From: Ophelia neglecta
Lineage: Eukaryota
Assembly (NCBI GenBank): GCA_965285935.1
Contig: OZ260661.1
Location: 43,276,001 to 43,340,000 of the forward strand
Direction: 5' to 3'
Length of the DNA stretch: 64,000 bases
Shown: piece after piece, positions 30,380 through 60,099 of the stretch
Layout: each line of letters begins with the position of its first letter
Position numbering within the stretch: the stretch's first letter is position 1
Notes under the pieces: model-generated
Database searches by the model: none
What the model saw: the letters and a program-made list of their open reading frames with translations, nothing else
What the model was told of the DNA's origin: nothing
Position numbers and translations under genes: made by a program

Positions 30380-32495
30380 CCACATTTGGTCAACAGTAAT
30401 TATATATCAGGAGCTTTTAAATTATTATATTTAAGAGAACTGATTTCCTCACTATATTCCATTAGGCCACAGAAGTTTAGCAAGTGTACACTCTGCATAT
30501 CGTAACATGACAGACAACACTTCCCGAAAACTCCTTCTCTACACCTGCTATCATTAACATCACATCATTTTCAAGAAATAATATCCAATGCAATATATTT
30601 ACTGTAGATATAACCACAAAGGTTTATGGACTCTTCTCTCATATCTGTTCTGGTGTTGGTTGACATGGTGGAGTGTTGGTGCTCGCTGGCATATAAAGAG
30701 CCATAGAGAACATATTGGAAAATAAAGCTTCTTTTTTACATATTTTGCATGTGTTATGTCAGAATAAGGGACAGTTTCACATTGCAGCCATTTGATCAGA
30801 TGCCTGTGAGGCATAAAACCCCAGGGCCTGATCAGGGAAACTAAACTCTCAGTGATACTTTAGAATAAACTAACAAACTGCATTTACCTGGTTTTTATGC
30901 TTAAACATAGGTTCTATATTCATCTAATAGATGACTAGTTTTTTTTCATTTTCAAAGTCTAGTTAATAATAAACTTTGGTGGCAAACTTAAGAATGGGTC
31001 TTGTATTGAAATAGCCAAGTTCCTTTATAAAAATTTTAATTTAAAAAAAAAACAAAAAAGCTATGGCCCAACCTTAATGTAGAAGTAAGGGTGCTTCTGA
31101 GACTATAGAATAAGTGTCTTCTATTAGACAATTTACTGTATGCCAAGTTGTCTTGCACTGAATCAAGAAATTAATCTCACTAGTTAGTTTTGCAGTGGTA
31201 TTTATATGGCTGATACTACTAGTAATGTTAGGGGTGAACAAGTATTGTTTTGTAATACTAGAAGAGGAAAAAAAATTAATGTCAGGAGTGTAAAAATGTC
31301 TTTGAAGCAGATAAAATAGTGATATTCTCAACCTCTCTTCCATGCAGTCCATGAACAGAGGCCAAACAGTCCAAACAAAGTGTTTGGACTTACGATTCAG
31401 TGGTTTAGTTGAAAATATCCTCTGAACTATAATTGTATTATCTCTCAAATAGTTCTAGTCACCGTCAGACATCATAGAATATTGCTCCTTTGCTGGTAAA
31501 AAAACTAAACAGTCCCATAACATCACACCTCGACCACTAGTATATCATTTCTTTCAAATTATTTGCTGGTACATGTACATGTAATTGAATTAATTGGGTT
31601 TGGTATTTGCACAGTGAAGGTGTTACAGCCATTTTCACCTGTTTGGCCTGTGAATGTGAAGCCCTGTCAATGATGGCAACAATATGATCTATTATGATAA
31701 CCATTAAATGCATGTCAGGCACCTCAGAAGGTTTTTTTGTAATAATGGAAAGGTGTGTCCTTTCTGAAGAACATTGACTGTAGTTGCCATGATTGTGTGC
31801 CTTGGGGATGTAAGGTATATGAAGAAATTGAATGTCTTGACTAAGCATTCCTCCATTACATTGTGCCAGCCATCTGAGCACAGCTTAGAAATAGAGCACC
31901 TCATGGTTTTTCCTTTAGGGAGTCCAAATAAATTCTATGAAGAAACTATACACCCATGATGAAGTCCAGTACATTGCCTATCTTAACCTTAACATTTGTC
32001 CACCATGTTGCAATGTAATATTGTTTATATGGATCTATTTGGGGGCCTTGGTTCTATCAACACTATTCAGCTGTTTGCAGTCAATATTGAAAGAGAATAT
32101 CAACATGGTGAAAAGCAATTCTCAATGATATGTCAAGCAAATGTAATAGAATACCTAGTTAATTAACAATGAAGAAATGGTTGCCATCAGCTAGGTTTTA
32201 AAGAAGATTGATTGTAAAGAAACTTACTAGATACTTACATCAGTGTATGGTAATTATAATTTGTCAGACAGGTTCATCTTTTACACAAGGTAAATATTAT
32301 AAGCAGTCAGCAATAGTTTGTGCTATGGCAATTGCTATCAACAGAGTCAACGTAAATATAATATTACAAGTCTGATAAAGTTGTTACATTTATATTAATT
32401 AAACGATGCTGTTCATTTTTCTTAAAGATATCCAAGTCTCACTTTTCACTAGTTATGTATAAACTATCAGAATCAGAACGTCTTGTTAAACAAGG
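30380..32495 (-). pseudogene. Degenerate L1/Tx1-like LINE ORF2 fossil (endonuclease end through RT)
   Basis: In order on the minus strand: LDIFKKN (~32410-32435), WWTNVKVKI (~31980-32010), TWHTVNCLIEDTYSIVSEA (cf. NWRPISLLNxDYKI), FIKE (cf. GFIKGR), LDFE (~30950-30962), LIKWLQ...YSDI, RYAECTL (~30485-30505; cf. QYADDTTL). Confidence 0.5.
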
Positions 32496-32737
32496 TAATT
32501 AACAATTATTTGCGTTTGAGGAACGAATTAGAAAATAATTGTGTTATTAACAGACGGCGACGCGTCTGTACGGGTAAGCTGCTCGAAACAGCTTTTCTCT
32601 GAATAGCTCGTATAGCTAACCAGAAAGCGTGGCTGCCACGGGAGTGGCCCTCCAAGGAGCGGCCGGTTCAGCGGACACGGCCTCTGAAGTCATTCTCGGC
32701 TTGACCACGAAGGGTGCACTACCTAAATTAGAATAAC
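32496..32737 (+). repeat. Split direct repeat A1 (242 bp), 5' terminus of the element
   Basis: Matches 37238-37479 at a constant offset of 4742, with one mismatch seen (G32572 vs A37314). Confidence 0.95.
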
Positions 32738-32742
32738 TAACC

Positions 32743-33447
32743 ATGACCAGTACAGAAGCCTTGGAAAAATTCAAAGCCGATATTATAAAGGAGTTTGAGG
32801 GCCAGTTCGCAGAACTACAGCAAAAACAAAGTTCGCTAGTAAGCAGCATTACGAAAAAATTGCATCCTGACCACCCACAGCACGAATGGAAGCGACAAGG
32901 AACGAAAAAGCAATACGATTTCAACAACAGCGTTAAAGATCATCTGACCACTGCCCAAGAATCATTGGAGAACAACGACCCTGACCAGGCCAAATCATCA
33001 ATTATACAAGGTATCGTCGCTATAGAAAATAGAAACAAACTTATTCGTATCGCCGATACTACCCCCGACGGCTGGGCCGTAGTAGACGAATATACGACGA
33101 GAGGCATCGCAGACGACTCCGACGACGACAAAAAGATACGCAAAGCCGAAAAACTCGTCAAGAAAAGGCGGGAAGAAGAGCGGGAAAAGAGGCGCCGCAC
33201 CCCACAAAATCGCAGAGGCTACCAAAGACGCCAATACTCTAGTTACTGGAGACCTGCCCTGGCCGCACCTCCAATTCGTCCAAGCCTTCCATCCTACCCC
33301 ACCAGCTCCTTCTCAAACATCAGACCAAACTTCACTCGACAAACAAGCGATTCCTGCCATTTCTGCGGAAATTTTGGCCATTGGCACCGTACTTGCCCAG
33401 CAAGGCTAGCTTCCCTTTCGGCAGCCTCAGACAGCAAAGGACAATAA
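32743..33447 (+). CDS. gag: Gag-like ORF1 (234 aa) with CCHC zinc knuckle
   Basis: CHFCGNFGHWHRTC is C-X2-C-X4-H-X4-C at 33355-33396. The segment RNKLIRIAD..GW..V.EY....IADDSDD.KKIRKAE resembles Gag of animal YR retrotransposons. The ATG lies 6 nt after the end of A1, with an in-frame TAA just upstream. Confidence 0.88.
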   Translation: MTSTEALEKFKADIIKEFEGQFAELQQKQSSLVSSITKKLHPDHPQHEWKRQGTKKQYDFNNSVKDHLTTAQESLENNDPDQAKSSIIQGIVAIENRNKLIRIADTTPDGWAVVDEYTTRGIADDSDDDKKIRKAEKLVKKRREEEREKRRRTPQNRRGYQRRQYSSYWRPALAAPPIRPSLPSYPTSSFSNIRPNFTRQTSDSCHFCGNFGHWHRTCPARLASLSAASDSKGQ

Positions 33448-33526
33448 AAAGCTAAGTACACAACTTAGACTATTATCATATCCTACCCCCTATCGAGATA
33501 TTCTTCGTCATAGCTTATCATTCAAG

Positions 33527-35536
33527 ATGTCTAAAATTATCAAACCAAATATTCCAGAAAAGAAACAAATGCCTATTTCGGTCGTGGGTCGCCTAAAACA
33601 AAACCTTAATTTTTGGAAATCAATTGGGGCATCAAAGGAAATCATCAAAATTATAGAACATGGATACGTAACTCCCTTTGTAGGCAACCCCCCTCCCATT
33701 TACCTCAAAAATAACAAGTCTAGCCGCGAAGAGCCCACATTTGTTAATGACGCGATAGCCGATTTACTATCAACAGGAGCGGTCATAAAAACGCCAAAGC
33801 CCCCGCGCATTGTAAATCCATTGACAGTAGCTATCAATGAAAAAGGCAAAAAACGCTTGGTGCTCGATTTAAGACACGTCAACAAATATGTATACCACAA
33901 AAAATTCAAATTTGAAGATTTAAACACAGCGCTTAACTATATCAAACCAAATTCCTATATGTTTTGCTTTGACCTAAAATCAGGTTATCATCATATAGAA
34001 TTATGTTCTACCCAAAGGGAATATTTTGGTTTTGCCTACCCTGACAAAGACGGGAATTCCCAATATTATATTTTTACTGTTCTACCCTTCGGGTTATGCT
34101 CAGCCGGACTTGTATTTTCCAAAGTCCTAAGAGAGTTAGTCAAACACTGGAGAGCATTCGGTATACAAATTGTACTCTACCTAGATGACGGTATCGGCGC
34201 CGAAGATACGCGCGAAATCGCTTGTACACACAGCGCCATAGTGAAAGAAGATCTAGCAAAATCAGGTTTTGTAGAGAATTCAGAAAAGTCTGATTGGAAT
34301 CCCACGAGAAAACTAACTTGGCTGGGATCCACAATTGATACAGAGAGCGCAAAAATTTTTATACCAGCCGAAAAGGTCCAAAACATTCTCGAACTTCTTC
34401 AACAAGTGTTCCAAAACGACCATTTGGTAACCGCCAGATTTATTGCAAAAATCGTGGGAAAAATAACCGCGTGCTATCAAGCTCTAGGTGACACCGTTTA
34501 CCTGAGAACGAAATTTCTCCAAATGCACGTAATATCAAGATACAGTTGGGATTCCACAACACTAGTAGGCGCCAAACCCACCAGCGAATTACTTTTTTGG
34601 TTAAAAAACATACAAACCTTAAACGGCAGGCCGTTCATTGAAAATGAAATCACAACCAAATTAGCATTTTCCGACGCCAGCGGTACAGGTTGCGCTTCGT
34701 GGATCAAAGGAGCACAAGCTCCACAAATCGCACATAGACAGTGGTCCGATCTAGAAAAAGTTAAAAGCAGTACTTGGCGAGAACTCGAAGCAGTACGTCA
34801 CGGACTTTGGTCCTTCGGTCAACCACTAGCAAACCAGAGAGTACACTGGTTTACAGACAACACAAACGTCGTCCCTATTATCAAAAAAGGCAGCATGGTT
34901 GAGGAACTCCATTCACTCAGCCTCCGAATCAACGATATCTGCTCCATCCGAAATATTCGCTTGCAAGTTTCATGGATCCCGCGAGAACAAAACCAAGATG
35001 CCGACGCATACTCGCGAATAATAGACATCGAAGATTGGGTAATAGCAAACCATATCTTCAAATATTTGAACCAAATTTGGGGCAAGTGTGATATAGACAG
35101 ATTTGCCAGTTCAAAAAACCACAAATTACCACGTTACAACTCCCGTTTTTGGGACCCAAATTCCGAGGGAATAGACACATTCACACAAGATTGGTCCAAA
35201 ACATTTAACTGGTTAGTGCCACCTGTTTACTTGATAACGAGAACAATACTACATGCACGCATTTGTCATGCAGCAGGCATACTAATTGTCCCCTTTTGGC
35301 CATCTTCCACATTCTGGCCACTAATCACAAAGAGAGGTGGGGTAGGATTCAAAGAATTTGTCAAAGCCTATAGAGAATTTGGCAACATTTATCAACACGG
35401 CGAAAACAAAAAATCTTTGTTCGGATCCAAAAGATTCCAAGGAAAATCTTTGGCTCTTTACATAGATTTTAAGCCCGGACCAGTAAGTATATATGATAGG
35501 AACTTGCAATATCCATGTTATTGGCAAATTGATTAA
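33527..35536 (+). CDS. pol: Pol: reverse transcriptase + RNase H + C-terminal DNA adenine methyltransferase-like domain (669 aa)
   Basis: RT motifs: RLVLDLRHVN, FDLKSGYHH, LPFGL, YLDD (34178-34189), TWLG. RNase H D-E-D-D residues: FSDASG, STWRELEAV, FTDN, NQDADAYSR. MT-like motifs: IDRFAS (DRFAS at 35096-35110) and WLVPPVY (VPPVY at 35216-35230). Confidence 0.95.
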   Translation: MSKIIKPNIPEKKQMPISVVGRLKQNLNFWKSIGASKEIIKIIEHGYVTPFVGNPPPIYLKNNKSSREEPTFVNDAIADLLSTGAVIKTPKPPRIVNPLTVAINEKGKKRLVLDLRHVNKYVYHKKFKFEDLNTALNYIKPNSYMFCFDLKSGYHHIELCSTQREYFGFAYPDKDGNSQYYIFTVLPFGLCSAGLVFSKVLRELVKHWRAFGIQIVLYLDDGIGAEDTREIACTHSAIVKEDLAKSGFVENSEKSDWNPTRKLTWLGSTIDTESAKIFIPAEKVQNILELLQQVFQNDHLVTARFIAKIVGKITACYQALGDTVYLRTKFLQMHVISRYSWDSTTLVGAKPTSELLFWLKNIQTLNGRPFIENEITTKLAFSDASGTGCASWIKGAQAPQIAHRQWSDLEKVKSSTWRELEAVRHGLWSFGQPLANQRVHWFTDNTNVVPIIKKGSMVEELHSLSLRINDICSIRNIRLQVSWIPREQNQDADAYSRIIDIEDWVIANHIFKYLNQIWGKCDIDRFASSKNHKLPRYNSRFWDPNSEGIDTFTQDWSKTFNWLVPPVYLITRTILHARICHAAGILIVPFWPSSTFWPLITKRGGVGFKEFVKAYREFGNIYQHGENKKSLFGSKRFQGKSLALYIDFKPGPVSIYDRNLQYPCYWQID

Positions 35537-35874
35537 ATATACTTTATTAATTGATTAATAGTTCGACAGATTACTGAAATCGATAGTACAGAATTTCACT
35601 GTATATATATACATATATATGTATATAAATTTCTCAACTGGAGCGTCAGCCCAGAAGTACCACACGAGATGGTACGATACACAACCGGGTTTTTTCTCCC
35701 GAGGCCTACAAAAGGCTAACTCACCCAGGCAACGAGCCTGTATAGACAAAACATTGAATAAAAACTAATCAATACGATGAAATACCCACACGCACTAGCA
35801 CGTTAAGTAGCCTAAATTTAAGACCAAAAAAGTACACAAAAGGACACGCAGTGCATATATGACACATATAAATT

Positions 35875-36918
35875 ATGTATAACACATTATTTTTTAAACT
35901 TACAGAGATCCTAAGCCACCATACCAGTGACTTTCAGCATCTACAAAATCCAGAACTTCAGAGTTTAGTCGCCAAGCTCCCGGACACTCTACTGGCCAGC
36001 AGAGCAACAAGCACCACTTCGTCATACGAAGGAGCCTTCCGAAGATTCAAATCTTGGATATCGCACTTCGAAGAACTCTCATATCTCCCAGCCACCCAAG
36101 TCTCCGTAACACTGTACCTCCTTTCCTTAATTCAAGAAGGGAAATCGACCTCCGTGCTAAAAAACGCTCACTCCGCCATAGCGTGGGCACACAAACTAGC
36201 AGGTTTCGAAAATCCCACGGACAACACAACAGTAAAACTAGTATTCGAAGCCGGACTAAGAATTAACGGTAAACCTGTCAACAAAAAAGAGGTCATCACT
36301 GTGGATATTCTCGCAAAAATCGTAAACCTCTGTGACACTGAACAAAACTTCATGTCTGTAAGGAGAGCAACATTGTGTCTACTAGCTTTCGCAGGTTTTT
36401 TAAGATACAGCGAACTAGTAAATATCAGACGCTGTGATATCGATTTCCATCCACAGCACATGACGCTGTTTATCGAAAAATCCAAAACTGACATTTATAG
36501 AGATGGTAAAATACTAGTTATTGCAAAAACCCATACAAATTTATGTCCTGTAACCATGTTGGAAAAATACCTCTCAATGCTTTCATTGTTAAACTCACAG
36601 TCCGATGAATTCATTTTCAGAGCAGTCTCACCATTGAAGTCCTCGGAAGGATACAAACTCAGAGAGAATCCTCGCCACATTTCTTACTCTACAGTAAGAG
36701 ATTTACTTAAACACGCATTAATTTCAGTGAAAGAAGATCCAACCAAATTTGGTCTACATAGCATGAGAGCCGGGGGAGCCTCTGCAGCGGCAAACAACGG
36801 AGTTTCTGACAGAATGTTTAAAAGACACGGTCGCTGGAAGAGCGATACCGCCAAAGACGGTTACATCAAAGACAAACTAGAAAGTCGACTTGCTGTAACT
36901 TTAGCATTAGGCTTATGA
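35875..36918 (+). CDS. Tyrosine recombinase (347 aa): N-terminal core-binding domain plus lambda-integrase-family catalytic domain
   Basis: The catalytic set is complete: R177 (FLRYSEL), K204 (KSKTD), H295-x-x-R298 (HSMRAGGA), W321 (HGRW), Y330 (DGYI). The true start is uncertain. Confidence 0.95.
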   Translation: MYNTLFFKLTEILSHHTSDFQHLQNPELQSLVAKLPDTLLASRATSTTSSYEGAFRRFKSWISHFEELSYLPATQVSVTLYLLSLIQEGKSTSVLKNAHSAIAWAHKLAGFENPTDNTTVKLVFEAGLRINGKPVNKKEVITVDILAKIVNLCDTEQNFMSVRRATLCLLAFAGFLRYSELVNIRRCDIDFHPQHMTLFIEKSKTDIYRDGKILVIAKTHTNLCPVTMLEKYLSMLSLLNSQSDEFIFRAVSPLKSSEGYKLRENPRHISYSTVRDLLKHALISVKEDPTKFGLHSMRAGGASAAANNGVSDRMFKRHGRWKSDTAKDGYIKDKLESRLAVTLALGL

Positions 36919-37157
36919 AACATATTTTTCATTGTATTTCAGAAACCAGTAGCTTGATGACCGAATCTCAGCACTATATGCCTTGAATTAGGCCTACAGC
37001 AAAGCCGATCGCCTAAACATATATAACACGTACACTATTGTTAACTCGTCACTGTACACTACACAATACCGTATGCACCGTAAAAATTTAATAAAGGCAA
37101 TTATTAAATATTGATGCATAATTCATATCCATATTTTGACTCAGTCTTTATATTCCT

Positions 37158-37240
37158 CGGCAGTCGCACCCCCGTGAAGCCACCCTTAAAGTAAGGTGTT
37201 ACTTTTCATTCTATAAATCAGCAGAGCTGACAGGTAATAA
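37158..37240 (+). repeat. Split direct repeat B1 (83 bp), internal, overlapping A2 by TAA
   Basis: Matches 38070-38152 at an offset of 912, with one mismatch seen (A37215 vs G38127). Confidence 0.95.
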
Positions 37241-37479
37241 TTAACAATTATTTGCGTTTGAGGAACGAATTAGAAAATAATTGTGTTATTAACAGACGGC
37301 GACGCGTCTGTACAGGTAAGCTGCTCGAAACAGCTTTTCTCTGAATAGCTCGTATAGCTAACCAGAAAGCGTGGCTGCCACGGGAGTGGCCCTCCAAGGA
37401 GCGGCCGGTTCAGCGGACACGGCCTCTGAAGTCATTCTCGGCTTGACCACGAAGGGTGCACTACCTAAATTAGAATAAC
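37238..37479 (+). repeat. Split direct repeat A2 (242 bp), internal
   Basis: Direct copy of A1. The B1-A2 join reproduces the predicted circle junction. Confidence 0.95.
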
Positions 37480-38063
37480 ATAACTAAATTTTCCTTTAGA
37501 TCAAGAAAAAATTTACTGACCTCGTTTCTTTCAGCACTATCGGGTTACTGAAACAATATTTCTTCAAAAATTTCAGAATGGAGAGAAAAAGAAGAGACAA
37601 CATTAAAGATACCCTGTTTATCTAGAGGAAAAATCGTTTATAACAATATTTATTTTAACAGTTCATAACGCAACTCTTTGATATCTTTAATCTACATTGG
37701 GCAAAATAAAAATCCCAGGAACCTTTTAACAATCGCTTGTTAGCTGGTCACCGAGAAGTGCTTTTAAGCATACTCTACAGCAAACGTAAAACAGGGCCTG
37801 GTGCACCTCCCCGAGTTTTCCTACATAAATAAAGATGTAGGTTTTTAAGGGGTTGGGTGGCCGCGCGATTGTACGGATATTAATTGTAATGCCCACACGC
37901 TTTGTATTTAAATTGAGTGTACAGCTACATGGTTCAAAGTAACAGCACATGCTATCGAAATATAAAATACAATAAACCTATATTTACTTCATGTATATAT
38001 AGACGTAGATAAGAATAATTGTATACGACTACAAGAAAAGATGTACACTCCCGATTAATACTT

Positions 38064-38069
38064 AATAAA
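38064..38069 (+). promoter_or_regulatory. Candidate polyadenylation signal of the element transcript
   Basis: AATAAA lies immediately before B2, so cleavage would fall inside B2, as the split-repeat replication model expects. Other AATAAA hexamers occur in the AT-rich spacer. Confidence 0.4.
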
Positions 38070-38152
38070 CGGCAGTCGCACCCCCGTGAAGCCACCCTTA
38101 AAGTAAGGTGTTACTTTTCATTCTATGAATCAGCAGAGCTGACAGGTAATAA
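38070..38152 (+). repeat. Split direct repeat B2 (83 bp), 3' terminus of the element
   Basis: Direct copy of B1, ending ...GACAGGTAATAA. CpG-poor host-like sequence resumes afterwards. Confidence 0.95.
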
Positions 38153-40799: not shown

Positions 40800-41900
40800 G
40801 AGTAGCAGAAATGCTGCCCTATAACCTATTTAGTCCACACTCTTTGCCAGTGATCTACAGAGAACATGAACCCTCATACTAGGTGTGATGGATATAGGAA
40901 AAAATTCACCTATTGTCTTTAGCTCTCTCAGCCCATCAATTATTGTTATGAGTACCTCATGTCTATATTTTATCAAATAAATAACTCTTTTTCACATCCT
41001 TTATTTCATGGCTCCTTGGTTTATACAGTCCTTGCATGCTTTTTCATTGAACATGGTTGGTTTCTATTGTCAACCAGACCAGAGAATGGGGCTACCTATG
41101 AAGCTTCATTTTTGTTTGCCAATTTTGATTGGTTAGATTGCTGAACCTGTTTTCTTCTTATATATAGTATTGACATGTGGTCAATTTTCAAGACTATTAT
41201 CCCCCAGCATTTCTTCATTTTGGAGCTTACATGCCCAGTAATGGGTCTTCTTAACTATTCATGATCTCCAGCTGTTAGACAACAATCCAATGGTCTTGAA
41301 GGAGTCTGTCCAATAGTAAGTGTCCTTTCATTTTTGTCTGTCTGGTATACATGTACAGCACCAGGTAATGTTCATTTAAGTGGTCTCTTTCATTAGTTTG
41401 AATCCTCAATGGATTCACTTTATTATTTGGCTTTCATCAGAAATGTTAACTACATTTTGTACATATAGGCACAGTTTATTACCTCAGTATTTGGCTAATG
41501 TGCCCAGTAATCCCCCTGTATGGCAGGCATACATGCAACTGTATGGTACAGGGATAAACTTGGCATTGTTTGCAGAGGAGTGCAACATGGAGATGGATGG
41601 AATGGAAAGCTGCTTGGGGTGTTGATACAGGTATTACTGTCTAAATAATTAAGGAAATTAGACAAGCTCAGCAGAGAAATATCATCAATGCTTCTGTAAG
41701 AACTGATGTATCTGAACTGAACTAGACAGTAGATTTCCCATTGGGTTTGCAGGGTATTCAATGTTGGCTCCAGTCCCTCTTGTCATGCAAACATTGGCCT
41801 TCCTGATGTTTAGAGTGCTTTTGGACTTGTAATGATTTTACTACTTCATCAATGTTACCAAGTTTTGTAAATGGCATTCCATTGAATTTTTTGATGGTAC
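40800..41900 (-). pseudogene. Degenerate LINE (CR1/L2-like) RT fossil
   Basis: In order on the minus strand: NIDEVVKSL, SSYRS..ISLLSLS (cf. NYRPISLLS), FLMKA, NAGDNSL (cf. YADD), NWQTKMKL (cf. WxxxNxLxLN). Each motif is weak, but they are collinear. Confidence 0.35.
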
Positions 41901-41910
41901 AAACCAGCGA

Positions 41911-43590
41911 TGAGAGACTAGGAGAGAAATGGGAGATGTGGGAGACAATGTGAGAGATGGGAGACATGGGAGACAATGGGATGAGAGAGAGACAGAGACA
42001 GAGACAGAGACAGAGACAGAGACAGAGACAGAGACAGAGACAGAGACAGAGAGAAATGGGAGAGACGGGGAGACAATGAGAGAGAGATGAGAGACATGGT
42101 AGACTACGAGAGGTGAGAGATGAGAGAGAGGGGAGACAATGAGGGATGAGATGTGATGAGAGAGATGGGTGACAAAGGGGAGATGAGGGTGATGGGAGAG
42201 ATGGGAGACAATGAGAGATATAGGAGAAAATGACAGATATGATGTGATGAGAGAGATGTGAGACAATGGGGGATGAGATGTGATGAGAGAGATGGGAGAC
42301 AATGAGGGATGAGATGTGATGAGAGAGAGGGGAGACAATGAGGGATGAGATGTGATGAGAGAGAGGGGAGACAATGAGGGATGAGATGTGATGAGAGAGA
42401 GGGGAGACAATGAGGGATGAGATGTGATGAGAGAGAGGGGAGACAATGAGGGATGAGATGTGATGAGAGAGATGGGAGACAATGAGGGATGAGATGTGAT
42501 GAGAGAGAGGGGAGACAATGAGGGATGAGATGTGATGAGGGAGATGGGAGACAAAGGGGAGATGAGGGTGGATGAGAGAGATGGGAGACAATGAGAGACA
42601 TAGGAGAAAATGATGGATTTGATGTGATGAGAGAGAGGGGAGACAATGAGGGATGAGATGTGATGAGAGAGATGGGAGACAATGGGGGATGAGATGTGAT
42701 GAGAGAGAGGGGAGACAATGAGGGATGAGATGTGATGAGAGAGAGGGGAGACAGTGGGACAGAGGAAGGTTGAGGTGAGAGATGGGAGACAATAAGAGAC
42801 ATAGGAGACACTGAGAGAGATGAGAGCCAGTGAGAGAGATGAGAGACATAGGAGACAATGACAGAGATAAGAGACAGTGAGAGAGATGAAAGAGCTGAGA
42901 GATATAGGAGAAAATGAGTGATATAAGAGACTATGAGAGAGATGAGAGACAGTGAGAGAGATGAGACAGATATCAGTCGATGAGAGAGATGCGAGCCAGT
43001 GAGAGAGATAAGAGACATAGGAGACAATGAGTGATATGAGAGACAATGAGAGAGATTAGACAGATATAAGTCGATGAGAGAGATGGGAGACAGTGAGAGA
43101 GATGAGAGACATAGGAGACAATGACAGAGGTAAGAGTGATATGAGAGACAATGAGAGAAATGAGAAGCGTAGGAGACAATGAGAGAGATGAGAGACAAAA
43201 AGAGAGATGGGAGACAATGAGAGAAATGAGATTCATGACAGACAATGAGAAATGACAGATATGAGAGACATGGCAGATATTGAGAGACATGATGGACAAT
43301 AAAAGAAATGAGACCAAATGAGAAGTGACAGACATAGGAGACAATGAGAGATGACACAGGAGACAATGAGAGAGATGAGAGATGACGAGAGAGATAGGAG
43401 ACACTGCAAACATTCGGAGACATGGGGGACAATGAGAGAGATGATAGGTGTTTGGAGACATGGGAGATTAGAAGACACAGGAGACAATGAGAGATGAGAG
43501 GAGATGAGAGACATGGGAGACATGGGAGACGATGAGAGATGAGGATGACAGACATGGGAGACAATGACATAGATCATAGGTGTTGAGATA
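41911..43590 (+). repeat. Purine-rich (GA) satellite with a (GAGACA)n core and a 36 bp higher-order unit
   Basis: About 10 copies of GAGACA at ~41989-42049. The unit GAGAGAGAGGGGAGACAATGAGGGATGAGATGTGAT repeats near-perfectly at ~42250-42540 and ~42630-42755, then degenerates towards 43590. Confidence 0.95.
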
Positions 43591-45099
43591 TGGCAACCTA
43601 CTAACCATCCACTAATTGAGTGTTAATTAATAGTTTAATTTATAGGGACATGACATTTATTAGTTTCAAGAGGTCTGTGTGACCTTTTTTGTGTTTCTGG
43701 TAAGTTTGTTCTGGTTAACCTACCAGTGAAATTCAAGGCCTGCAGCAAATAAAGTAAATTATCAATCAATATCATATTCAATACACAGCACAAGTGTTAC
43801 CAGTTTCTAATCAGGTCACCATTTTCTTATTGATGGCTCAAGAGGTTAGCTTAGCCAGCCCTCTAAGTTACTTTCAAATGTTGTTTAAATTGAGATTTTA
43901 TCTCCATTGTTTAGCCCACTGAGCTGTATTGCACTCTTTTTGCTGCCTCTATCTCCTTGTGGGGGTGTTCAGTCTCATACTGGGACTTGAATTCAAACTT
44001 AGATTGAGTTCCATGAACCAGATTGGAGCAGGTAGTGTATCAGGCCATACATGACCCCCACCACTTCCAGGCTATCTGATTGAAAATAGATTAAAGATAG
44101 TTGGCTAAGCTAATTATAAAGGAGCAAGGCTTGGCCAATGGATTGCAGATTGGCATTGATTGGACTCTAAACTATCTAATCATTCTCCCCTTGGATTGGG
44201 GCTGCCTGGTCCAGGCTAGGACCCTGGGCATGGGACTTTCTACTGTGTAGTTCATATTTGGCAACAGTATCCCAACTATGCTGCAGTAGCTGAACATGGT
44301 ATACATTACACTTTCACATAGGTTGAGTGTTTGGCTCTTGCCTAGTGTGATAGCTCATGGTGGACTATTTTGTACTTGACCTTACAGATTAAATCTCCCT
44401 GTAGAGTACCTTCCATACCATCTCAGACCAGGTGGTGATGTGATAGCCTGCTTCTCTGAAAGCATAAGAGGTACAAATCTAGTTTTTGTTCTTGTGATCC
44501 ACATTATGATAAATACAGATACATTTAAATTACACACACATAAATATTTGGGCAGCATGTCTGAAATATACAACCAACATTGCTAACTTGGATGGACACA
44601 GATTCTATCCACACAAAATGGTCGGAATATAAAAATGGCCAGAAAGCTAGTAACCAGGATGTCAAAGACTCCTTTATGATTTTTCCTCCTTCTGATGCAG
44701 AAATGCATAACTTCAGCAGTAAGTGGGCTTAACTTGTCTGAAAAGTGTCACAAATGACCAAAGGGCTGTTTGATATGCAGATTCAAGAAAAATACGAAGT
44801 GTTAAAAATCACTAGAGCCATGAGTAGCTGGTCGAGCTGTGTTGACATACCTCTCCACTGAGTCTGGCCTAGTTTCAGTTGGAACAAAAATGAATTGATT
44901 GGTTCAAAGCTCTCAACAAACAATCAAAATTGGCCAGTAGAGCTTATATTAGTTCTTGGCATTCAGATTGGTGTTGGGTAAGATTATATTAAGGCCATTT
45001 TGATGTTGCCATGTCTTATGCAATGTAGGGACTGCCTCATTAACTCAACTCATTAGCCATTCCAGGATGACATTCCCCTCCATAGTGCTGGCTGCTCTA

Positions 45100-55585: not shown

Positions 55586-56272
55586 AGCAATGCATAGTTT
55601 TCACAAATAAGCTAGTCTAAGAGTTTGACTGGCTATCGTAGCATAGCAGCAATGCATTGTGTTTCACAAATAAGCTAGTCTAAGACTTAGTCTGGCTATC
55701 ATAGCATAGCAGCAATGCATTGTTTTTACAAAGAAACTAGTCTAAGAGTTAGTCTGGCTATCATAGCATAGCAGCAATGCTTGTTTTTACAAATAAGCTA
55801 GTCTAAGAGTTAGTCTGGCTATCGTAGCATAGCAGCAATGCATTTTTTTTACAAATAAGCTAGTCTAAGAATTAGTCTGGCTATCATAGCATAGCAGCAA
55901 TGCATTGTTTTTACAAATAAGCTAGTCTAAGAGTTAGTCTGGCTATTGTAGCATAGCAGCAATGCATTTTTTTTTACAAATAATCTAGTCTAAGAGTTAG
56001 TCTGGCTATCATAGCATAGCAGCAATGCATTGTTTTTACAAATAAGCTAGTCTAAGAGTTAGTCTGGCTATTGTAGCATAGCAGCAATGCATTTTTTTTA
56101 CAAATAAGCTAGTCTAAGAATTAGTCTGGCTATCATTGCATAGCAGCAATGCTTGTTTTTACAAATAAGCTAGTCTAAGAGTTAGTCTGGCTATTGTAGC
56201 ATAGCAGCAATGCAAGTTGTTTTTATAAATAAGCTAGTCTTAGAGTTAGTCTGGCTATTGTAGCATAGCAGC
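55586..56272. repeat. Minisatellite, 11 copies of a 61-64 bp unit
   Basis: Unit approx. AGCAATGCATTGTTTTTACAAATAAGCTAGTCTAAGAGTTAGTCTGGCTATCATAGCATAGC. The anchor GCTAGTC (or a variant) occurs at 55611, 55674, 55736, 55797, 55859, 55921, 55984, 56046, 56108, 56169 and 56233. Confidence 0.97.
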
Positions 56273-59200
56273 TGTCATTCAACCTCACCAAATACAATTT
56301 CATTTCAAGTGGGTTGGCCTTTTCAGCCTCAGAGGTTTTTCACACCATTGTAAATGCACACTCTTCACCTTTTCAGCTCTGTGGAAACCCCACACCTCAC
56401 CACCTTAATTATGATGAATAAGGTAAAATTAATTTGTTAACAATGTGAAACAATGATGTCTTAAAACAGCATATTTCTGCTTAGGAATATGGAAGACAAC
56501 AGAAGGTTACCACCCTTCTCTCCAAGGAGAGAGAAATAAAAAATCATAAACATAAGAAAAAGCTTAAATATATATGAAATATCCTGTGGAATGCTTATGT
56601 ATACAAGGATGAAATATTATTTGCTTAACATCCATCTTTTTTAAAAACAACCTCCTTAGCTTTTTTGTGCGTACATGTATGCTCCTTTTTTTGAAAATCA
56701 CAATAATGCTTTAGTCATAGGCATTATACATGAGGCAAGTGCCTTTTGTGGACAAGCCAGTTTGTTTTAGAAACTAATATAATTGTGTCAGTTGGACAGA
56801 GTAAGTATTGGCCATTTCTGTTGTGAAGTAGGTGCCCAGGCATTCAATGGCGAGGCAGGTGCCCAGGCATTCATGAGAAACTAGGTCTCTACTGACTCAT
56901 GGATCATGTAGTGCATGGAAAAGGCTAGGAATATGATTTTTGACCTCTTGTCATTGCTCTGTGTTGAGTAACACATGATAAGATTCACAGAGTCAACCCA
57001 GACCCTGGCTGTTTGGTCCAGTGTCTAATTGAGAGGAGCTGATGATATGTGTGAAAAATGCTGTCTCCTGTGAGCTAATCTTGCCCCCTACCTAGAAATG
57101 TACTTAACTGGCCAGGGAACTGTATATACATTAGATCAGCCATGATACTCCTGTCTGCAGGCACCTTTTATCTATTGGGGTTTTCTGACTATTGGGGATG
57201 CCCTGAATTTGTTGGAGGTAATAGGCGTAGCCAGTTGTCTTTATGAAAACACTGAGATGACTTGGTTTTGTTATTTCTCTGACAGATTTATCCGGAGGAA
57301 TGGATCAAGGTGCTCGTAATCTGGAGCACGCTGGGGTCATGTCTCGGGCTGACAGAATGGCTAGATGTTCCAGAGGTAGTATTATCACTAGGGCCCACAC
57401 CTCAAGGGAGATACCCGTCTTAGAATTCCATTTCAGAGAGACCTTATCGCCATACATTGCCTTTGCATTTAATGGCTGATAGCAGACGGAAGTGACCAGG
57501 GACCCATTCATTCGTGAAGATTTAGTAAATGCCTCTGTAGCTTGAAAGAAAGCAAAAATTCTACAACAATCAAGTTTCAGATAATTGTCTGGGTCGGGTA
57601 GGGGCCTGCCCACTGGAATTGCTTCATATTTGTCTATTAAAGAAAAGTGTTGCTTCATTGGTCAAGGTTGATTTTAACATGGTTGGTCACTTGGTTTGGT
57701 TAGGAGATCGCTGGGAGATTGCAAACCCCATGACACATCTGCCAGCCCCACTTCGTCTGCCAGCCCCACTTCGATCAATTAAACCAGTTCATCTGGAATC
57801 AACTAATGAAAAGCAATTGATATTAGGGAAGAAAATTCATGCTCCAGCACACATACACACATACAAGTAAGGGCTCTTCTCCTATCTCCAGATCCACACA
57901 GTCTGAAATGCAAGACTTATTGGAAGCTGCAGTGACCTTTATATCACCTTTGAGATTCCAATTTCTTTAACAACAGTCCTAAAATTGAAACCCTGGGCCC
58001 ACTCAATCTCAGAGTGAGCTGGCACATGATTCTAGTTAGGGGTTCCTAGCACACCTAATTTGAACAGGGTATGGGTAATTCTGCTAAACTACTGCAATTT
58101 TGCTAGGAATGTACATGTAGCTCTTAAGTCGGGGTGGTGGTGGGGGGGGGGGGGGGGCGCAGAGAAAGGCTGTCTCTATAAATTTAAGCTTTCAATAGGC
58201 AAACCATAAGTGTGGGTGGTTGTATTGAATTTTAGGCCTTTTAACCTTCTCTACAGCAGGCAGTGTGTCCTTGCTCACATTCCTCATATACAACTTCTTC
58301 CAAGGAAAACACTTGTGTAATTCACTCTCTATAATGTCTATTATTATTTCTCATTTTACTTTACAATATTATAGTACTAATTCTAGAAGCAACTAATAAA
58401 AAGTGCTTTATATCAAGATAAAAGGAAAATAAATGATGACAGTGAACAAATAGACTTACATTCATTCATTTTAAACTCAGCCTTACACTTTGACATATCT
58501 CAAACATATACACATGCACATAATCTCCAATACAAATTATGCACACACAAATTAATTCCTATACAATTGCATAAGATTCAACACCAAATAAAAATAAGAA
58601 AGTTGTGTAAAAGAAGTATTTTCTATTATGAGTCCTACAATTCTTGGGTAATTAGTTGTCAAGTGCTAGTTAGAATAATTTGGTTTTAATTGAGATTTTA
58701 AAAAATAGATAGTGTTTCAATTTGTCCCAGGGATTGAGGAAGTTCATTTGAGGATATTACATATCTAACATAATTTGTGGCTGAAATTCAGATATACCGG
58801 TATATATTATGGTTTGCTAGCAAGTATGGTGGCGCTTGTTCATCAATTTCATTTTTTAAATTGGTTTCATGAGTACAGTTCAGGTGTTCTGTCAATCAGA
58901 GTTCTTTAGAATACACCTTGGTGAGCTGATGATACATTTGATTGCATGAACAATGTCTCTTTGATTTTGGTAATCACGAGTCTGTTGTTGAATAAAGGCA
59001 ATGAGGTGAACCAGTTCCTCTCTCTCTGTTTGTCTTAATGAATTTGTTACTGGTCAGCTCTGCTTGACATGGGCATAGATAATTTTAGAATTAATAGAAT
59101 TATTAGTTTTGGAGATCCTTTATGCCTAATACATCCGATTAGCTTGATTAATGTCTTAATTTCAAGTCACTGCAAACATAATAGGTTAGCTGATCTCCCT

Positions 59201-59763
59201 GGAGTCTGATGAATGGTAGTACTAAGGCATGCTGGGCTAGGCCTGTTTACCAAGTCTAGTGATGTATGGCTGACAGGACTTGTGCCTAAGCTCAGAGAAA
59301 GGAGCTGACTTGAAGAGGGATTTACCATAGCTGTCTCCAGAGACACCTTAACCATAGCAGCTCATAGCTTACAAATTGCAGATAGCCCTCCCTCCCCCCA
59401 TCCCCCCTCACACACACATCATTACTTAATCTCCTAAATATATACTGACAAGAAAAAATATGCAGCTCATTATCGCTGAAATTCACCTTCCCCCTCAGTA
59501 TTGCCATATCCCAAATGTATGTCACTCATTTTTAGCTCTGAATCACAGTAATACCTTGCTTGTCAAACCTCTACCAGAGGTCACCTTTGTAGCAGGCTAT
59601 AACCACAAGTTTTTGAATTGTCCACATACCACACCAACAAACAAAATGTAACCAGCTTCAACATAAACAGGTAGAAAAGTATAAGTGTACAATCTTAATT
59701 GGCACATAATAATAATTTTGAGATTAATGACTCAAAGGGCTAAAAGTACACTTAAGCAATATA

Positions 59764-60030
59764 GTAGTGGTTGTAATGGAAGGACTCTAGAATGGTGGTT
59801 GTAAGGGGAGGACTCTGGAAAGGTGATTGTAAGGGGAGGACTCTGGAATAGTGGTTGTAAGGGGAGGAGTCTAGAATGGTGGTTGTAATTGGAGGACGTG
59901 GGGTGGTGGTTGTAATGGGAGGACTCTGGAATGGTTGTTGTAATGGGAGGACTCTGGAATGGTTGTTGTAAGGAAAGGATGCTGGGGTTGTGGTTGTAAT
60001 GGGAGGACAATGGGTGGTAGTTGTTGAGGA
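59764..60030. repeat. G-rich minisatellite, ~9 copies of a 28 bp unit
   Basis: Consensus GTGGTTGTAATGGGAGGACTCTGGAATG. Confidence 0.9.
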
Positions 60031-60099
60031 CCTCTTATGTGGGATGCTGGTGGTTGTTGGTGATTTCTAATGGAGGATTCTGAGGTGTTGATGATTGGT

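Follow-up and report, generated by a model that had tools for sequence, protein, structure and literature searches.

The 338-bp gap between pol and the tyrosine recombinase (YR) gene of a retrotransposon in the window (the whole stretch of 64,000 nucleotides analyzed here) is very probably, judging from conserved splice signals, the 3' end of a ~2.9-kb intron (33011–35905) that runs from a donor in the gag codon Gly90 to an acceptor at the start of YR. With the same high confidence we predict that splicing makes a 426-aa Gag-YR fusion comprising Gag 1–89 and 337 residues of YR. The gap carries a hairpin array that recurs among related families, is variable in sequence, and has a putative function. 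Since unrelated hairpin runs recur at the pol–YR gap, the array is, on balance, probably under selection as a structure.

Structure, Class, and Age of the Element

The element encodes gag, pol, and YR and has the following parts (coordinates are those of the window).

32496–38152, retrotransposon with gag, pol, and YR, bounded by A1...B1-A2...B2 repeats
32496–32741, + strand, A1 split direct repeat, 5' end of the element (repeat comparison; empty-site joint 32495 to 38150)
32743–33447, + strand, gag ORF with a C-terminal CCHC zinc knuckle (ORF; homologous ORFs in sister families)
33410–35536, + strand, pol ORF with RT, RNase H-like, and Dam-like methyltransferase (MT) (ORF and Pfam)
35906–36918, + strand, YR exon (ORF open from 35872; Pfam)
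37158–37240, + strand, B1 repeat (repeat comparison)
37238–37484, + strand, A2 repeat (repeat comparison)
38070–38152, + strand, B2 repeat, 3' end of the element (repeat comparison; empty-site joint)

The gag ORF matched no Pfam model, and its zinc finger (C-x2-C-x4-H-x4-C, close to the C-terminus of Gag) was read from the translation. Elsewhere in the element, Pfam matches were obtained for RVT_1 (4e-18), Phage_integrase (7e-11), and, weakly and under the Pfam cut-off, Dam (2e-4, pol 542–616). The RT, MT, and YR domains all share one orientation, and the A1-B1-A2-B2 split direct repeats have their internal pair 3' of YR. By this structure and these domains, rather than by an RT tree, the element is an echinoderm-form Pat1-like YR retrotransposon, an assignment to be read with the warning in the available part of PMC4157794 that structure in YR elements can be homoplasious. 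According to the same source, elements of this form (order DIRS) have in common with the window element an RT, an MT-like domain, a forward YR, a CCHC knuckle in Gag, and A1-B1-A2-B2 repeats whose internal pair follows YR. An assignment to Ngaro, which calls for the absence of an MT domain, fails on the weak Dam-like match, and for a Dirs1-like element inverted terminal repeats and an internal complementary region are expected, whereas no inverted pair was found at the element ends.

A genome search identified 11 copies that are 99–100% identical, and contigs from two of three runs (one sample) join 32495 to 38150 and thus represent the empty site. The insertion is therefore likely polymorphic, and the near-identical copies together with the empty site indicate that the family is very young. 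The empty site skips 5,654 nt, with three letters that fit either side and no target duplication. In some copies (L008–L010), the A repeat is longer by an insertion of 28 nt (window positions 32570 and 37309).

Predicted Intron from gag to YR

Three sites in the element bear on splicing.

33008–33016, + strand, predicted 5' splice site in gag Gly90, phase 1 (exon end 33010, intron start 33011)
35480–35488, + strand, second donor-like site, GTAAGT at 35483 near the end of pol
35885–35905, + strand, T-rich tract followed by CAG, predicted 3' splice site, phase 1

We fetched 40 G000 loci from related families and used one representative per family, giving 13 families including that of the window; five distant loci (L077–L081), in which pol overlaps or abuts YR or YR is unaligned, were left out. 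In all 10 G000 families that have the Gly, its codon is GGT followed by A, which provides a GT donor in phase 1, and Gly90 is the one among 36 conserved Gly columns that is fixed for GGT (background 0.33; 5.5e-4 after correction). When GT sites were ranked with a weight matrix, the Gly90 donor came first or second in the eight families scored. At the other end, the YR frame starts at a T-rich tract plus YAG at the same position in 13 of 13 G000 families, in phase 1 in 11 and in phase 0 in 2. Loci outside G000, which come from metagenome and genome-bin collections and which we infer to be animal host DNA, have the acceptor in eight of eight cases and the Gly donor in four of the six with a gag match. 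The donor and the pyrimidine tract/YAG acceptor, as in a GT-AG intron, are thus conserved in matching phase. By raw count, a branch-point pattern occurs 15–45 nt before the acceptor in 6 of 13 families, not including that of the window. Several bins labeled as prokaryotic (L086–L092) contain gag-pol-YR elements with splice signals and are most likely animal host DNA.

The Gly donor is missing in two G000 families and in two of the six outside loci. The two families lacking the donor and having a phase-0 acceptor (L058, L061, L059, and L060) share a phase-0 GAG|GT ~70 codons upstream in gag, which is possibly the candidate donor of a shifted intron.

Automated gene models have the same junction. 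Four amphioxus RefSeq models of 433 aa (XP_078665737.1 and three cluster members; hybrid) join the Gag N-terminus to YR at the Gly90 residue, and XP_077866782.1 from Saccoglossus (437 aa, an automated prediction) does so at the identical residue; a second Saccoglossus model has its junction ~8 residues further on. These "integrase/recombinase xerD homolog" models carry host-like gene names and are automated predictions. The full Gag isoform XP_078674392.1 has Gly at the junction residue, and other isoforms break there too. In further database models (P0093, P0094, P0131, and P0126), the parts fused to YR are RNase H or full Gag and the points of fusion differ, but YR is entered at the same place, which is consistent with a shared acceptor. 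In the predicted fold of the amphioxus model YR is confident, the linker has pLDDT <50, and the N-terminus is one long helix (6 of 42 alignment rows) that is uninformative.

No consistent acceptor was found before pol in 25 copies, and pol therefore does not appear to share the splice of YR. Contigs of unrecorded kind from the three runs contain no splice joint, a result that has no bearing on expression. Within its first 60 nt, the spacer has a strong donor-like site in the window family (35483) and in two more of the 13 families, compared with 2 of 63 60-mers taken from elsewhere in the spacers (p 0.03). Judged by eye, use of the donor at 35483 in the window and of its counterpart in L063 would end pol two codons past the junction, near the stop position of other families. 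The 5' part of the gap directly after a donor-like site is replaced in L042 by a poly(A) run.

Start codons bear on how YR would be translated. In 10 of 13 families there is no in-frame ATG from the upstream stop to the acceptor, and no Met follows before codon 43.

Hairpin Array in the pol–YR Gap

The gap extends from the pol stop (35534–35536) to an ATG at 35875 and contains the following features.

35537–35905, + strand, pol–YR gap, predicted 3' portion of intron 33011–35905
35587–35627, no strand assigned, weak 5-bp hairpin and 22-bp TA palindrome (folding)
35638–35740, + strand, five back-to-back hairpins with GC stems (folding; identical in 11 of 11 copies)
35757–35762, + strand, AATAAA directly 3' of the array, possible cryptic poly(A) signal

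All seven stems proposed in the preliminary description of the gap pair as described. The five GC-stem hairpins occupy 35638–54, 35657–75, 35686–701, 35703–717, and 35726–40, within an island that is indeed richer in GC (0.53 at 35636–35742 vs 0.28 in the remaining gap). Upstream of them, the perfect 22-bp palindrome at 35606 is unique within the window; the weak hairpin and the palindrome are not stable (pair probability <0.7) and have a stem change in one copy. The loop letters reported to be shared are present, ACGA in two loops and CGA in two loops of A repeats. The loops are A- or T-rich, three of the five have one G or none, and the five hairpins have no common stem or loop, among themselves or with relatives. 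AATAAA is present in 5 of 13 family spacers.

The array folds better than shuffled sequence. As + strand RNA, 35580–35760 (181 nt) has a z of −5.3, reached by 0 of 200 shuffles, and the − strand of the same stretch has −2.3 when folded as RNA and −4.5 when folded as DNA; with the TA palindrome excluded, the core of five hairpins has −3.4 (1 of 200 shuffles). The result depends on window size, for 120-nt tiles over the array score only −2.6 and −2.7, and better-folding tiles of that size include two in pol (34971–35130, −3.2 and −3.8) and 3 of 155 in host DNA at −3 or lower, among them 31321–31440 (−5.1). With pairing limited to 30 nt, the entire gap scores −4.4 to −5.3, under all 128 host windows of 430 nt (lowest −3.8). 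The array is real but modest. Because its stems are almost all Watson–Crick, the RNA strand cannot be read from them. Over the 11 copies there are 60 variable sites in 3,261 nt, from which the core expects 1.9 changes and has 0, a difference that is not significant (P 0.15). In the genome search, the array matched only the 11 element copies, a lower bound, which counts against a captured host repeat.

The preliminary description had considered an RNA associated with RT. An Rfam scan, which it had suggested, left the gap without a match at E up to 5 (ribozyme, snoRNA, IRES, and CTE families) and over the element gave two chance snoRNA matches in pol. Descriptors for HDV-like, hammerhead, twister, and pistol ribozymes, Pol III boxes, and C/D RNAs had no match either, and these results speak against such an RNA or a ribozyme.

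Recurrence of Hairpin Runs among Related Families

Gaps in G000 range from 104 to 803 nt and do not align: among the 13 spacers, 1 of 24 local alignments beat all 60 shuffles, and it was on the opposite strand. No short word is common to these spacers above chance. A covariance model of the window array searched against 52 sources (493 kb) matched only the window array itself, the viral contigs searched contained no relative, and two broader searches, of 173 and 63 genomes, added no further locus.

We then counted hairpins with at least four pairs, three of them G-C, and a loop of 3–8 nt, and scored an excess where at most 3 of 100 shuffles reached the count; the rule was fixed after arrays had been seen, and three of the outside gaps include an unaligned pol tail. 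By this rule 11 of 19 families have an excess in the gap (6 of 13 in G000 and 5 of 6 outside), or 11 of 15 when only long gaps are considered. Among controls, an excess is found in 4 of 133 host windows, 1 of 39 pol tiles, and 1 of 13 3' non-coding regions, the last being the window's own, where it overlaps B1/A2. The difference between gap and 3' region has a Fisher p of 0.008 overall and of 0.07 in G000 alone (6/13 vs 1/13). A structured cis element, as first proposed, is supported by the recurrence of hairpins at this position but not by their sequence or architecture, which do not recur. The preliminary description held that a region unconserved in relatives, lacking covariation, and folding like shuffled sequence would speak against such an element, and half of this is what we find, since the array sequence is unconserved.

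Four families with gaps of 104–141 nt have no array, and two of these have repeats that are 98–100% identical and are therefore young, which indicates that an array is not required in every family. An excess is also lacking in four families with long gaps (L063, L059, L076, and L086). Because tandem duplication inflates hairpin counts, we asked whether the tandem units are themselves hairpins, which was the case in four of four families with gap arrays versus 2 of 44 host tandem repeats. In an arm-swap test, L088 (P 0.014) and L091 (P 0.03) have stem changes that compensate each other while the loop stays constant, an outcome that is not significant in the other five of seven arrays (L090, 0.12; L089, 0.07; L052, 0.33; L092, 1.0; L044, 1.0), and the test is biased toward a positive outcome because units were kept for pairing. 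In relatives, many loops expose G (GTGGG, TGGAG, CGGAGT, TCGGT, and GAG). Their arrays mostly end 100–200 nt before the acceptor, and the window array lies 165–320 nt before it.

The gap of L042–L045 and L067 consists in part of a 36-nt hairpin unit in five to seven tandem copies, the number varying among copies of the element. L026 and L029 have a long inverted duplication in the gap that was not seen, by eye, in L063 of the same family, and L088 comprises two complete copies in one contig, tail to tail.

A Model for the Array and Its Alternatives

Splicing from 33010 to 35906 would join Gag 1–89 to YR and leave out the zinc knuckle, pol, and the array. Two RNAs would result, a full-length one serving for Gag and Pol and as the template and a spliced one for Gag-YR, and the element would need to favor the full-length RNA for copying; without a mark, spliced RNA that was copied would give pol-less daughters. 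The array, absent from the spliced RNA if the predicted intron is true, would be a multi-copy protein-binding patch confined to unspliced genomic RNA, whose exposed loop purines the CCHC knuckle of Gag would bind, as in retroviral psi, leading to packaging and reverse transcription. Among the functions suggested in the preliminary description, a packaging signal fits best because the array sits in the portion that splicing would remove, and all 11 copies found retain the gap. By analogy, the array could plausibly, if somewhat short of probably, be a landing pad for Gag that selects genomic RNA for packaging, with the CCHC knuckle as the ligand. The intron also contains all of pol, however, and a packaging mark therefore need not be in the gap. 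More doubtfully, each family may evolve its own intronic hairpin array as a barcode for its own Gag, which would restrict packaging and copying to the family's own unspliced RNA; this reading joins such barcodes to a retrovirus-like splicing programme of Pat1-like elements, in which the conserved intron from mid-gag to the recombinase gives rise to the Gag-YR fusion.

Several other readings of the array have to be weighed. It might, though this is rather unlikely, keep the RNA unspliced or export it, as a splicing silencer or a CTE/RRE-like element that binds host proteins or Gag-YR. The location of the arrays upstream of the acceptor, at the distances given above, would suit this, as would the donor-like sites that 3 of 13 families carry where the gap starts, and Cer1 exports genomic RNA via a protein made from spliced mRNA (PMC10309623, in the part available). 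Yet families with short gaps share the splice sites but lack an array, and a single host factor predicts a common motif, which the family spacers do not have. That GTAAGT at 35483 acts as a decoy in such a scheme seems similarly improbable. To a neutral origin, in which RT slips or switches template at hairpins and produces duplications and perfected palindromes that the gap tolerates, we likewise give a small share of belief: the unit number of five to seven in the L042–45/L067 family, the lack of sequence conservation, and the absence of arrays in 8 of 19 families are what it would lead one to expect. Against it, RT copies the 3' non-coding regions too, and these tolerate change but have an excess in only 1 of 13, and the arrays of the window, L058, L088, and L090 consist of differing stems rather than identical duplicates.

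It is quite unlikely that the hairpins work in single-stranded cDNA, as a site for second-strand priming or recombinase loading; the minus strand DNA does fold well (z −4.5), and DIRS-1 has linear single-stranded cDNA intermediates according to the available part of PMC7192593, but nothing links such a site to the gap, and in relatives the stem mismatches are G-U rather than A-C by 7 to 3, leaning, though not significantly, toward + strand RNA (P 0.17). Still less probable is a role in double-stranded DNA, where palindromic factor sites would make up a promoter or enhancer internal to the element, the TA palindrome would serve as TATA box, and YR would start at ATG 35875. Repeated short palindromes and the in-frame ATG of the window copy agree with that arrangement, whereas half-sites in L088 and L090 change together around a constant centre, which suits a hairpin rather than a factor site, and 10 of 13 families are without an upstream in-frame ATG. 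Least probable of all, and in our view barely credible, is the IRES-like entry site for the recombinase ORF that was suggested initially from a structured non-coding stretch before a third ORF: the window family does have the ATG at 35875, but the acceptor at the start of YR is conserved and in phase with a conserved donor, the RefSeq models are Gag-YR fusions, the same 10 families have no usable ATG, and the gap has no Rfam match.

Comparison with Known Systems

Packaging of retroviral RNA requires sequence located between the splice donor and gag, and zinc knuckles recognize G where it is exposed (PMC7599994, in the part available). Like psi of HIV-1 and MoMuLV as treated in that source, the window array is a cluster of stem-loops 3' of a predicted splice donor that would be absent from spliced RNA, and a CCHC knuckle is available as a partner in the Gag of the element. 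However, psi lies in the 5' leader and is conserved within a virus group, whereas the window array lies near the 3' end of the predicted intron and is unconserved in sequence; unlike psi, the array is missing in some families, and Gag binding is here a proposal. CTE, RRE, and CERV of Cer1 are similar in that a cis element in an RNA with a retained intron goes together with a protein from spliced mRNA (PMC10309623 and PMC4829213, in the parts available), but the array has no Rfam match and the spliced product here would be the integrating enzyme.

Published accounts of Pat1-like elements, as far as available to us, describe three ORFs, to which the window element adds a predicted intron, a predicted Gag-YR fusion, and a hairpin array. 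The parts of PMC7192593, PMC9341512, PMC6681497, PMC4157794, PMC12477816, PMC3266345, PMC9210276, and PMC5633606 that we covered mention neither a gag-YR intron nor gap arrays, nor did the literature searched contain a report of either, and Repbase and subscription papers, which lie outside that search, may note the splice. Neither "splic" nor "intron" occurs in the available text of PMC3266345 and PMC9210276, "intron" is absent from that of PMC4157794 and PMC6681497, and the term "Gag-YR" is absent from the literature searched. The element type is thus known and its splice is apparently undescribed. Expression of the third ORF and the choice of RNA to be copied in YR retrotransposons are not addressed in the portions of the literature examined. 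The predicted intron would define an exact junction and implies that the enzyme probably exists as the Gag N-terminus plus YR, which bears on recombinase biochemistry and on the annotation of transposable elements and genes. Should the arrays indeed mark RNA for Gag binding, the Pat1-like/YR group would have its first candidate packaging signal, and the arrays would exemplify an RNA signal with fast turnover at a fixed address.

Elsewhere in the window, we observed a GA-rich satellite at 41900–43600 and minisatellites with units of 62 nt (55586–56285) and 28 nt (59737–60042).
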